Source: an uncultured Chloroflexia bacterium
Lineage (GTDB): Bacteria > Chloroflexota > Limnocylindria > QHBO01
Assembly: GCA_963750025.1 (NCBI GenBank)
Contig: CAVVPF010000002.1
Location: 20,081-84,080 of the forward strand
Reading direction: 5' to 3'
DNA length: 64,000 nt
Shown: piece after piece, positions 39,682 through 41,820 of the stretch
How the letters are laid out: every line of letters begins with the position of its first letter
Position numbering within the stretch: the first letter of the stretch is position 1
Notes under the pieces: generated by a model
Databases searched by the model: none
The model's input: the letters and a program-made list of their open reading frames with translations, nothing else
What the model was told of the DNA's origin: nothing
Made by a program: the position numbers and the translations under genes

Positions 39682-39930
39682 CGGTCTCCCTCTTCGAATC
39701 GAGGGGCCCGCAAGGTGGAGAGGCTGCTCGTGGTAACGGAAAGGGCCGCGACACCGGTAGAGGGTGTGCGGCCCGTAGTGAGGAGCCTCCGTGCCAGGAG
39801 GCCCCGTCCGTCGGTCGTTGCGACGCGTGGCCTCTAGGCCCGTGCCTCCCGGCAGGGCCGCCCGAGCTTGGACATCCGCTTGAGCTCGATGGCGCCACGC
39901 ATGGTCAGCACCCTAGCAGGCGTGTCAACC
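39682..39930 (-). promoter_or_regulatory. Leader A: conserved promoter motif, leaderless 22-codon uORF (39902-39834, MRGAIELKRMSKLGRPCREARA) and GC-rich hairpins upstream of dapB
   Basis: Minus strand reads GGTTGACACGCCTGCTAGGGT (39930-39910), 7 nt, then ATG at 39902, with TAG at 39836-34. Downstream hairpin is GGGCCGC..GCGGCCC-TTTCC, and hairpin CCCTC-N8-GAGGG covers the dapB SD. The first about 90 nt are paralogous to leader B. Confidence 0.5.
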
Positions 39931-40209
39931 CCGGGGGCAGCAGCCGCCTGCCATGGCCGGCAACAGGATCACCACGTCGTCCGGGCCGACCTTCGTGTCG
40001 AAGCCATCCTGGTGCCGGATGTCCTGGTCATTGACGTACACGTTCACGAACGGCGAGAGCCGCCCCTGCTCGCTGAGCCGATCGCGCAGCGCGGGGTGAC
40101 TGGTGAACAGATCGTCGAGCACCGCCGCCACGGTTGACCCGCGGGCTGCGAGCTCCTTGGATCCGCCCACCACATCGCGCAGGACCGGTGGGATGCGTAC
40201 CCTGCTCAT
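39925..40209 (-). CDS. MoaD/ThiS-family sulfur-carrier protein with a 5-residue tail after GG
   Basis: MSRVRIPPVLRDVVGG...VYVNDQDI...VVILLPAMAGG-CCPRG stop. It appears to be a paralogue of the CysO-like protein at 21486-21761 (same IPPVLR, VYVN and LLPAMAGG blocks by eye). Confidence 0.75.
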   Translation of the reverse strand: MSRVRIPPVLRDVVGGSKELAARGSTVAAVLDDLFTSHPALRDRLSEQGRLSPFVNVYVNDQDIRHQDGFDTKVGPDDVVILLPAMAGGCCPRG

Positions 40210-40216
40210 CGTTCCA

Positions 40217-40516
40217 TCAGTCGTGCCTCGCGGCGCCCACCTCAGGCAGGCCATCGGCCTCAACCTCATACATGAAGGCGCGCGCCCGGTCGAGGTGCGG
40301 CAGGAAGGGAATGGCCCGCAGCCGCGCCATCGACTGGCGCAGGTGGGTGATGCGCGCCGCGTAGCCGTTGGGGGAGACGCGCGCCTGGCGGAACAGGTTA
40401 TCGGTGATCAGCACTTCGCGCCGGCGGCCGCCGAGCCGATGGGGCTCGGTGCTGGGCAGCAGCGGCGGGTTGACCTCCGCCAGGTCAATCGGTGTGGTCG
40501 GACGGGCGGGGCTCAT
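40217..40516 (-). CDS. Hypothetical protein (99 aa) between the thrC-like and carrier genes
   Basis: The ATG at 40516 overlaps the thrC-like stop (ATGA). I recognise no motif. The call rests on coupling and on being the only sizeable ORF in the gap. Confidence 0.4.
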   Translation of the reverse strand: MSPARPTTPIDLAEVNPPLLPSTEPHRLGGRRREVLITDNLFRQARVSPNGYAARITHLRQSMARLRAIPFLPHLDRARAFMYEVEADGLPEVGAARHD

Positions 40517-41820
40517 CGGGTCTCACCGTCCGGGCGCTCGAGCGTGGCCCAATGGGCCTCGAAGGCGTCGAAGGTGGGGGCGATGACCTCGCTGGGCAGC
40601 TCGGCGAGCACGTCGAGCGTCTTGAGCCCGTTGCCGGAGATAACCACCACCACCTCGTCGTCGCCCTCGACCACGCCGCGCCGGATGGCCTGCTGCAGGG
40701 CGGCCAGCGTCACGCCGCCGGCGGTCTCGGTGAGGATCCCCTCGGTCGCGGCCAGCAGCCGCACCGCGGCGATCACCTCGGCGTCCTCGACGCCCTCGAT
40801 GCTGCCGCCGCTCGCGCGCGCCAGCGCCAGCGCCGGACCGCCGTCGGCGGGGCTGCCGATGGCCAGCGAGCGCACGATGGTCGTCGGCTCGCGCACCGGC
40901 GTGACTTCGTCGGTCCCGGCGGCGAAGGCGGCCGCGATCGGCCCGCAGCCGGCGGCCTGGCCGCCGACGTAGCGCGTCGTCCGCCGCTCGATGAGGCCGA
41001 CCTTGGCCAGCTCATCGAAACCCTGGGCGATCTTCGTGTACATCGAGCCCGACGCCAGTGGCGCGACCACCACGTCAGGGCCGCGCCAGCCGAGCTGTTC
41101 GGCGATCTCGAAGGCGATCGTCTTCGAGCCCTCGGCATAGAAGGGGCGCAGGTTCACGTTGAGCACGGCCCAGCCGTCGAGCTCATCGGTCAATTCCAGC
41201 GACAGGCGGTTGACCGCGTCGTAGGGTCCGTCGACGCGGATGACGCGCGCGCCCAGGGCGACGGCCTGGGCAACCTTGGCCGGCTCTAGGTCGGCCGGCA
41301 CCAGGACCACCGCGCGCAGGCCGAGGCTCGCGGCCGCGGCAGCCACCGCGGCGGCGAGGTTGCCGGTCGAGGCACAGGCCAGGGTGTGGAAGCCGAAGTC
41401 GCGGGCCCGCGCGGCGGCGATGGCCACCACCCGGTCCTTGAAGGAGAGGGTCGGGTTGCGCGAGTCGTCCTTGATCCACACCTGGCGCAGGCCAAGCCGC
41501 TCCGCCAGGCGGGGAGCCGCAACGAGCGGCGAATAACCGACGGGCAGGCCGTCAGTCGGCACCCGATCAACCGGCAGCAGCTCGGCGTAGCGCCACATCG
41601 TCCGTGGGCGCGCCGCGACCGCTGCGCGCGTCAGTTGCTGCTGCACCGATGCGTAGTCGTATGCCGCCCGCAGCGGGCCGAAGCAGCGCGTACAGACGAA
41701 GTTGGGTCCGGTCGGGGCGTCGGCGCCGCAGTGCCCGCAGCGCAGGCCGATGAAGCCGGGGGTGAAGTCAGCGATGCCGTCGGTGGGGGAGCCGGGCACG
41801 GTGTCGAGCGTCAGGTTCAT
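40513..41820 (-). CDS. Threonine synthase-family PLP enzyme with an N-terminal zinc ribbon (ThrC, or ThrC-like homocysteine synthase)
   Basis: CGHCG...CTRCFGPL zinc ribbon. PLP lysine context is NPTLSFKDR. GNLAAAVAAAAA. 435 aa. Confidence 0.8.
   Translation of the reverse strand: MNLTLDTVPGSPTDGIADFTPGFIGLRCGHCGADAPTGPNFVCTRCFGPLRAAYDYASVQQQLTRAAVAARPRTMWRYAELLPVDRVPTDGLPVGYSPLVAAPRLAERLGLRQVWIKDDSRNPTLSFKDRVVAIAAARARDFGFHTLACASTGNLAAAVAAAAASLGLRAVVLVPADLEPAKVAQAVALGARVIRVDGPYDAVNRLSLELTDELDGWAVLNVNLRPFYAEGSKTIAFEIAEQLGWRGPDVVVAPLASGSMYTKIAQGFDELAKVGLIERRTTRYVGGQAAGCGPIAAAFAAGTDEVTPVREPTTIVRSLAIGSPADGGPALALARASGGSIEGVEDAEVIAAVRLLAATEGILTETAGGVTLAALQQAIRRGVVEGDDEVVVVISGNGLKTLDVLAELPSEVIAPTFDAFEAHWATLERPDGETR

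Follow-up and report, generated by a model that had tools for sequence, protein, structure and literature searches.

What does a gene that would automatically be called thrC do when a gene for a sulfur carrier stands behind it? The question is raised by a locus in a 64,000-nucleotide stretch of DNA from an uncultured Limnocylindria bacterium of the phylum Chloroflexota (assembly GCA_963750025.1, contig CAVVPF010000002.1), which we refer to as the window. In this locus three minus-strand open reading frames (ORFs) lie between hisF/hisA/hisIE (upstream) and dapB/dapA (downstream). A first-pass annotation had proposed that the leading ORF, a ThrC-like enzyme dependent on pyridoxal phosphate (PLP), is a candidate thiocarboxylate-dependent homocysteine synthase working with a MoaD-like carrier. 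Our comparisons support that proposal, based on the phylogeny of the enzyme, S-adenosylmethionine (SAM)-I riboswitches upstream of its orthologues, the carrier gene downstream and the pathway context. We consider it highly likely, as judged from sequence, that the locus encodes a MetM/MetO-type route to homocysteine, and the gene pair is very probably a soil Chloroflexota copy of MetM/MetO. The three ORFs are as follows (here and below, coordinates are window positions unless another contig is named).

40513..41820, minus strand: metM-type gene for a ThrC-family PLP enzyme of 435 aa with an N-terminal four-Cys ribbon, a putative O-phosphohomoserine-dependent homocysteine synthase (matches to PALP and TIGR00260; MetM clade).

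40217..40516, minus strand: 99-aa ORF, best read as a truncated 5' remnant of a methylenetetrahydrofolate reductase (MTHFR)-like, or metF-like, gene (residues 12-58 compared with an MTHFR-like protein).

39925..40209, minus strand: metO-type sulfur carrier of the ThiS/MoaD fold, ending in Gly-Gly (GG) plus the 5-residue tail CCPRG (matches to ThiS and SAMP1; adjacency).

MetM and MetO of Streptomyces albulus (UniProt A0A059WBP2 and A0A059W7F4) form an O-phospho-L-homoserine route to homocysteine, according to two articles that cite Hasebe et al. 2024, Appl Environ Microbiol (PMC13759103, PMC12172450). The first-pass annotation had named this Streptomyces system, and named it correctly.

The locus lies on contig C2 of a metagenome-assembled genome (MAG) of 2.73 Mb in 37 contigs that is 84.5% complete. 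The G+C content around it in the window is 70-77%, and the nearest public relatives of the enzyme gene come from MAGs labelled Candidatus Limnocylindria or Chloroflexota. The organism is thus to be placed in the Limnocylindria and is no actinobacterium. The previously described layout was recovered in full, all of it on the minus strand: a ThrC-like enzyme with four cysteines of the zinc-ribbon type, a 99-aa ORF whose start overlaps the enzyme stop codon as ATGA, and a carrier. The next promoter-like box along, TTGACA..TAGGGT, overlaps the carrier stop codon, and so the three ORFs form one transcription unit, as had been suggested. The enzyme matches the PALP domain with 238 bits and the NCBIfam thrC model TIGR00260 with 244.8 bits, against a model cut-off of 167.1. 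Automated annotation will therefore name it threonine synthase, a mis-call that had been foreseen and a name that its homologues in NCBI and JGI already bear. Two JGI proteins are 90-92% identical to the enzyme. The N-terminus of the enzyme carries the motif CxxC-x11-CxxC (C28, C31, C43 and C46), which is invariant in 86 of the 86 members of its clade and absent from canonical ThrC. The PLP lysine, K128 in SFKDR, is intact and is conserved in both the MetM-type and canonical ThrC clades, and 18 positions in the alignment discriminate one clade from the other.

The separation between the two clades was clear in a maximum-likelihood tree of 97 protein rows, including 8 canonical ThrCs, that of this assembly among them. 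The enzyme fell inside an 86-row clade (support 99) with Streptomyces-type and Limnocylindria genes, with a branch of support 100 between that clade and all of the canonical ThrCs. S. albulus MetM, the characterised sequence, is not among the tree rows, and Streptomyces-type genes stand in for it. One bridge is the protein of locus L092, from a large actinobacterial genome, which shares 82-93% identity with proteins that bear Streptomyces species names and 49.8% identity with the enzyme. Homologues at ~50% identity were present in 134 of the 301 genomes in a sample of the actinobacterial phylum, which was reached through the genome behind locus L025. A second and better-scoring thrC (303.8 bits) was found on contig C34 of the assembly, with thrB ~1.1 kb downstream and a tag gene in between; its product is ~35% identical to the enzyme. 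Canonical ThrC was also present in 5/5 other homologue-bearing genomes (3 Limnocylindria and 2 large actinobacterial). A canonical ThrC would be recognised by its grouping with thrB- or hom-linked ThrCs and by having no N-terminal Cys ribbon; the enzyme groups elsewhere and has the ribbon. Clustering with canonical threonine synthases in a genome with no further thrC had been named beforehand as the outcome that would speak against a homocysteine synthase. What we found was a strongly supported branch apart from those enzymes, a grouping with Streptomyces-type genes, and another thrC near thrB.

The surroundings of the orthologous genes point to methionine. Scans with the SAM-I model (RF00162) found a riboswitch directly upstream, on the same strand, in 46 of 54 MetM-type loci of sister clades, with scores of 59-90 bits across the three locus groups. 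These were 14/14 actinobacterial loci from genomes of 5.7-9.9 Mb (65-88 bits), 14/20 further actinobacterial loci and 18/20 loci from other families of class Limnocylindria. On the other side, most loci in each group have a GG-carrier gene -3 to ~100 nt downstream of the MetM-type gene, and the two often overlap by 4 nt, across two phyla. The tallies include unpublished genomes (G016; G042, G059, G089, G109, G161, G187, G212, G258, G269 and G293; G388 and G432; G426), as do the tree rows (L085, L089 and L130, the last being one of the 18 riboswitch matches in the class); the conclusions are independent of them.

The carrier of the window belongs to the ThiS family (51 bits) and is of the SAMP1/MoaD type. 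Its identity and its AMAGG-CCPRG end had been called correctly in the first-pass annotation, whereas the 114-aa extent from 40269 was too long: alignment with relatives places the start at the ATG at 40209 (MSRVRIPP...), which gives 94 aa. The C-terminus reads LLPAMAGG-CCPRG, of which LLPAMAGG is conserved, and relatives have between 0 and 11 residues after the GG. Because CCPRG follows the GG, the C-terminus would need trimming. The carrier had also been described as CysO-paralogous, in agreement with its 57-64% identity to two CysO-like carriers encoded in this assembly, of which one lies at ~21495-21761; it is 45% identical to Streptomyces MetO. A candidate enzyme for its activation is encoded on the same contig.

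20354..21475, plus strand: rhodanese-ThiF (MoeZ-type) E1, candidate carrier activator and sulfur donor (Rhodanese and ThiF domains; contig C2).

This E1 opens a plus-strand group at 20354-22718, followed by a CysO-like carrier ending in AMAGG-AG and by a cysM that is split in two frames near 22020. A second cluster, on contig C25, has the order sufS-sufU-E1-cysO-cysM-JAMM peptidase, and its JAMM gene is intact (Prok-JAB, 72.8 bits). In total the assembly holds two rhodanese-ThiF E1s and one intact JAMM peptidase.

The assembly also contains the steps on either side of homocysteine formation, with thrB for the supply of O-phosphohomoserine and metE, on contig C28, for the use of homocysteine. 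In a class-wide survey of 121 genomes, 36 had MetM only, 31 had MetX only, 9 had both and 45 had neither; among the sampled genomes of genus g17, 3 had MetM and 4 had MetX, never both. As the genomes are related, this alternation is a pattern and not a statistical test. Both genes of the assembly for PLP enzymes of Cys/Met metabolism are broken over two or three frames (G000 C9:314753-315902 and C25:48769-49742), and one frameshifted gene of this family lies ~2.3 kb downstream of a cystathionine beta-synthase-like gene. Frameshifts were seen in metM as well, in the related MAG loci L032, L039 and L043, and the cysM of the window is likewise broken. Assembly errors are the likely cause, which makes calls of 'pseudogene' in this assembly unsafe.

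The 99-aa ORF between enzyme and carrier had been left as an unknown in the first-pass annotation; it is instead a gene remnant. Its third-position G+C (GC3) of 0.88 is coding-like, and it had no Pfam match (searched to E up to 1) or NCBIfam match. Residues 12-58 are 60% identical to residues 1-47, thus the N-terminus, of a 270-aa MTHFR-like protein encoded on contig C28. In metagenome locus L160, where the enzyme is 81% identical, a metF-like gene comes directly after metM; its product is 78% identical to the C28 protein over 94 residues and looks full-length to the contig end. Nine genome relatives were without a counterpart of the 99-aa ORF between metM and metO, and so was metagenome locus L159, where the enzyme is 87% identical and the carrier follows it directly. 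Based on these similarities, the ORF is best read as the dead 5' stub of a metF-like operon gene that some relatives have and that was deleted here, and the stub is a further tie of the operon to methionine metabolism. Two other readings of the ORF were rejected: a conserved small protein, given the absence of a family match and of counterparts in relatives and the MTHFR-like N-terminus, and a NIL-domain protein, as there was no NIL match at E up to 1. On contig C28 the 270-aa gene itself stands immediately after metE (G000:C28:1752-4801, locus L053), with one copy per genome in the genus. Its protein gives weak matches to MTHFR models (16.7 bits in Pfam; in NCBIfam 49.6 bits, over a part) and is possibly a divergent methylenetetrahydrofolate reductase.

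The region upstream of the enzyme gene differs from that of the sister clades. There was no Rfam match in its 360 bp and no riboswitch in 16 close relatives of the locus. With permissive settings, an Rfam scan over 38500-43500 returned just a chance small RNA match inside a coding region, and no SAM-I riboswitch was found anywhere in the assembly. The region holds three other elements.

42021..42039, minus strand: promoter-like box TTGACAcgcctgcTAGGGT, conserved in relatives and with an identical 19-nt copy before the dapB leader.

41945..42013, minus strand: leaderless leader ORF of 22 codons with a Met-x-Met-(Pro/Arg)-(Gly/Trp) core, conserved (MHVAHEFIMAMPGRPRRSEGPA).

41874..41905, minus strand: terminator-like hairpin of the leader, GACGGGGCCGCG / CGCGGCCCCGTC, with pairing across 18 leaders.

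The TAGGGT of the promoter-like box lies 7 nt before the ATG of the leader ORF, which implies a leaderless start. The Met codons of the ORF are at 41989-41981, and shortly after them, at 41975-41968 and still inside the ORF, GCGGCCCC is a copy of the 3' arm of the terminator-like hairpin that can pair with the 5' arm. We compared 18 distinct leaders from the own subclade of the enzyme. All 18 have a TAnnnT box followed, at a fixed distance of 7 nt, by an ATG or GTG. The ORFs have ~20-22 codons, of which the first 7-8 vary freely with frame and length kept, and the M-x-M-(P/R)-(G/W) core is present in 17 of the 18. A further hairpin spans the end of the ORF in these leaders. The GC-rich terminator-like hairpin is paired in 96% of cells over the 18 leaders, with one compensatory change from a G-C to an A-U pair (6 sequences), and is followed by U-rich tails in some relatives. 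Among the closest relatives the core block does not vary by a single nucleotide, even at wobble positions. The genes with such a Met leader form a single clade in the 97-row tree (17 rows, support 100), nested among riboswitch-bearing Limnocylindria genes, and the riboswitch thus appears to have been replaced once.

The first-pass annotation had pointed to a leader ORF with Met codons and no Thr codons, and had taken this as a sign of methionine rather than threonine control. The ORF is real and conserved and has the Met codons; the absence of Thr codons holds for the window alone, most relatives reading T-T-M-A-M or D-T-x-M-x-M. The methionine assignment nevertheless has backing from SAM-I in sister clades, the conserved Met-x-Met leader, and the MTHFR-like gene or stub in the operon. 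We infer that the Met-x-Met leader responds to methionine here. We see an even chance that a SAM-I riboswitch gave way, in one replacement in one Limnocylindria metM lineage, to a leaderless Met-codon leader-peptide attenuator, and that this is one of a modular attenuator family. The family that we propose, with belief and doubt evenly weighed, would share the promoter box, an ORF of ~22 codons, an in-ORF copy of the 3' arm of the terminator, and codons matched to the pathway. Under this proposal, which could equally hold or fail, the codons would be those of Met at metM, of Lys at dapB and of Ile, Leu and Val at the ilvB-like gene of a relative. None of the papers searched describes a methionine-codon leader for metM and, to our knowledge, no such methionine-sensing leader peptide has been reported before.

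A second leaderless leader was noted at 39685-39928 (minus strand), before dapB-dapA, starting at the carrier stop codon. It has the identical 19-nt box TTGACACGCCTGCTAGGGT and a 22-codon ORF MRGAIELKRMSKLGRPCREARA, followed by a hairpin and then by a terminator with a U-rich tail. The two Lys codons of its peptide are kept in two relatives, and the in-ORF stretch and the 5' arm of the terminator co-vary (GCGGCCC with GGGCCGC becomes GCGGUCC with GGACCGC). We regard it as a candidate lysine-codon attenuator at a place where a lysine riboswitch would be expected. An assembly-wide search for the exact promoter box returned the metM and dapB leaders only, and searches with loose motifs gave noise. 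In metagenome locus L159 the gene after metO bears the same promoter type (L159:2210-2500, metagenome contig Ga0070696_100062564), with a Leu/Val/Ile-rich peptide, a terminator and then an ilvB-like gene; this leader seems to represent the branched-chain amino acids within the attenuator family. Together the metM, dapB and ilvB-like leaders support amino-acid-specific control by leader peptides.

Two MetM-type genes were observed in a single 5-Mb MAG labelled Solirubrobacteraceae (G041). The one on contig C17 (loci L025/L062) has a SAM-I riboswitch and is 56% identical to the enzyme of the window, and the one on the 133-kb contig C32 (L058) has a Limnocylindria-type Met leader and is 77% identical to it. 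The pair reflects either transfer between phyla or a mis-binned contig.

Based on homology to the characterised systems, the route would operate in the following way. A JAMM (Mec-type) peptidase would trim the C-terminus of the carrier and expose Gly-Gly, and a rhodanese-ThiF (MoeZ-type) E1 would then adenylate the carrier and turn its end into a thiocarboxylate. The ThrC-like PLP enzyme would take O-phosphohomoserine made by ThrB, eliminate the phosphate and add the sulfur of the thiocarboxylate at the gamma carbon in place of water, which would yield homocysteine for conversion to methionine by MetE. The enzyme and canonical threonine synthase would compete for O-phosphohomoserine and, because of this shared substrate, the enzyme would be a branch-point enzyme. 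Expression may be tied to methionine supply through the Met-x-Met leader and the terminator-like hairpin. The in-ORF stretch would act as antiterminator by pairing with the 5' arm of the hairpin: a ribosome moving slowly over the end of the ORF at the time that the 5' arm is made would leave the stretch free to pair, and transcription would read through.

Several points weigh against a MetM/MetO-type route, or against parts of it. The link to the characterised MetM runs through a 9.2-Mb genome whose protein matches Streptomyces-named proteins, rather than through the characterised accession. A Microcystis homologue, 51.6% identical to MetM, was reported to behave chiefly as a threonine synthase/deaminase and brought no rise in methionine (PMC12172450), and so membership of the clade does not guarantee MetM activity. 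MetX, whose presence the first-pass annotation had suggested checking, was not found in the assembly, and neither was MetA/HTS; at 84.5% completeness these absences are weak evidence. No intact JAMM (Mec-type) peptidase was detected after the frameshifted cysM of the window. Thermodynamic folding of the leaders was also ambiguous. The free leader favoured the antiterminator in 10 of the 18 leaders, and masking of the ORF to 15 nt past the second Met codon restored the terminator in 16 of the 18; in these models the outcome would be the opposite of the classical attenuation scheme unless timing matters.

The last of these points concerns contig C2 itself. Of the contigs compared it has the highest G+C (70.8%), and among those >50 kb the largest tetranucleotide distance. 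It carries a second copy of the E1-cysO-cysM cluster. The enzyme gene was absent from all 5 genomes sampled in the genus and occurred in just 3/40 of the family, and four genus relatives that are 95-99% complete (G005, G008, G017 and G022) were without metM, MetX and hisIE. The contig may be an island or mis-binned, in which case the partner genes found elsewhere are perhaps those of another organism; the alternative to a foreign contig is that this genome is unusually prototrophic for its genus. The doubt about its provenance weakens the arguments that span several contigs, and leaves the evidence from phylogeny, synteny and riboswitches unaffected. Two other features of the contig were noted. 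A Replic_Relax relaxase is encoded at 18018-18896, and the part of the contig near it may be mobile. At 4998-7824 (minus strand) a ThiS-like protein, a Prok-E2_D E2, a small ORF, a JAB peptidase and a short ThiF-like E1 make up a bacterial set for ubiquitin-like conjugation that has no relation to sulfur transfer.

Three other explanations of the locus were weighed. It is very improbable that the enzyme is a thiocarboxylate-dependent PLP enzyme for some other sulfur compound, be it cysteine from O-phosphoserine or a specialised metabolite. The carrier does resemble the CysO-like carriers of the assembly more closely than Streptomyces MetO, but the assembly already has two cysO-cysM clusters with enzymes of the CysK/M type, the substrate of the ThrC-type fold is O-phosphohomoserine, and the SAM riboswitches, the Met-codon leader and the metF-like linkage all point to methionine.

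It is also very improbable that the operon has lost its function in this organism and persists as a passenger, either newly acquired or in decay. Such a reading would account for the truncated gene inside the operon, for a carrier tail (CCPRG) that looks like an accident of the promoter box lying over the stop codon, for the patchy occurrence of the gene in genus and family, and for a contig of odd composition with a relaxase. The enzyme and carrier ORFs, on the other hand, are intact and have kept all invariant residues, the core of the leader is nucleotide-identical to that of relatives, and no other homocysteine route was found in the assembly.

Least probable of all is a true second threonine synthase, perhaps moonlighting as a threonine deaminase next to a carrier in an unrelated role: the TIGR00260 score above cut-off, best solved structures by sequence that are threonine synthases, the reported action of the Microcystis homologue on threonine (PMC12172450) and a location among his and dap genes rather than met genes are outweighed by the low identity to canonical ThrC with its deep branch and discriminating positions, by a canonical thrC close to thrB in this and 5/5 other genomes, by orthologues under SAM riboswitches and not threonine signals, and by a carrier directly downstream in two phyla.

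We thus retain a MetM/MetO-type route as by far the likeliest function. The pair was described in 2024, and GapMind 2026 already includes it; the locus adds a further example, with two local oddities: a Met-codon leader in place of the SAM riboswitch and a metF-like stub between enzyme and carrier. The assignment matters for annotation. This gene and thousands of its relatives are named 'threonine synthase', metabolic reconstructions miss the sole visible homocysteine route, and Limnocylindria and other soil bacteria may be wrongly called methionine auxotrophs. The alternation of MetM and MetX in the class helps to decide which lineages make methionine, and the SAM riboswitch of the sister clades set against the Met-codon leader here offers a clean natural case of sensor replacement.

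The closest known system is that of S. albulus, where the metM gene, a homologue of thrC, is preceded by a SAM riboswitch and has metO as its neighbour (PMC12172450). MoeZ and Mec are the partners of MetM there, and the enzyme is frequently misnamed threonine synthase (PMC12172450, PMC13759103 and the preprint of the latter). The locus in the window shares the order of a ThrC-like enzyme and a ThiS/MoaD-type GG carrier, a canonical thrC and a thrB apart from the pair, genes for a MoeZ-type E1 and a JAMM peptidase at other sites, the database name, and a place in one clade with Streptomyces orthologues at ~50% identity. It differs in its host, which is of the Chloroflexota, class Limnocylindria, in having a leaderless Met-codon leader with a terminator-like hairpin instead of a SAM riboswitch, in the MTHFR-like stub between enzyme and carrier, and in the 5-residue tail of the carrier after GG.

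Two further systems use protein thiocarboxylates. In Mycobacterium tuberculosis, CysM, CysO, Mec and MoeZ carry out thiocarboxylate-dependent synthesis of cysteine from O-phosphoserine. The predicted chemistry here is alike in having a PLP enzyme that receives sulfur from a ubiquitin-like thiocarboxylate, the partners being an E1 and a JAMM peptidase; the enzyme of the window is of the ThrC type and not the CysK/M type, and would be expected to convert O-phosphohomoserine to homocysteine. In Wolinella succinogenes, HcyS, HcyD, HcyF and MetY carry out protein-thiocarboxylate-dependent homocysteine synthesis. As predicted for the locus in the window, the HcyS carrier has a C-terminal extension for removal by a JAMM peptidase and delivers its sulfur for homocysteine. 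Unlike the enzyme here, that of Wolinella belongs to the Cys/Met-metabolism PLP family; as an O-acetylhomoserine sulfhydrylase it depends on acylated homoserine, for the supply of which neither MetX nor MetA was found in this assembly.

The leader, for its part, is closest to those of mycobacteria, in which leaderless polycysteine short ORFs attenuate cysteine genes (bioRxiv 10.1101/834739). As in those ORFs and in classical attenuators, a short ORF, leaderless as in mycobacteria, has codons that match the end product of the downstream pathway. Unlike the polycysteine ORFs, the core here is just Met-x-Met, and a stretch within the ORF mimics the 3' arm of the terminator.

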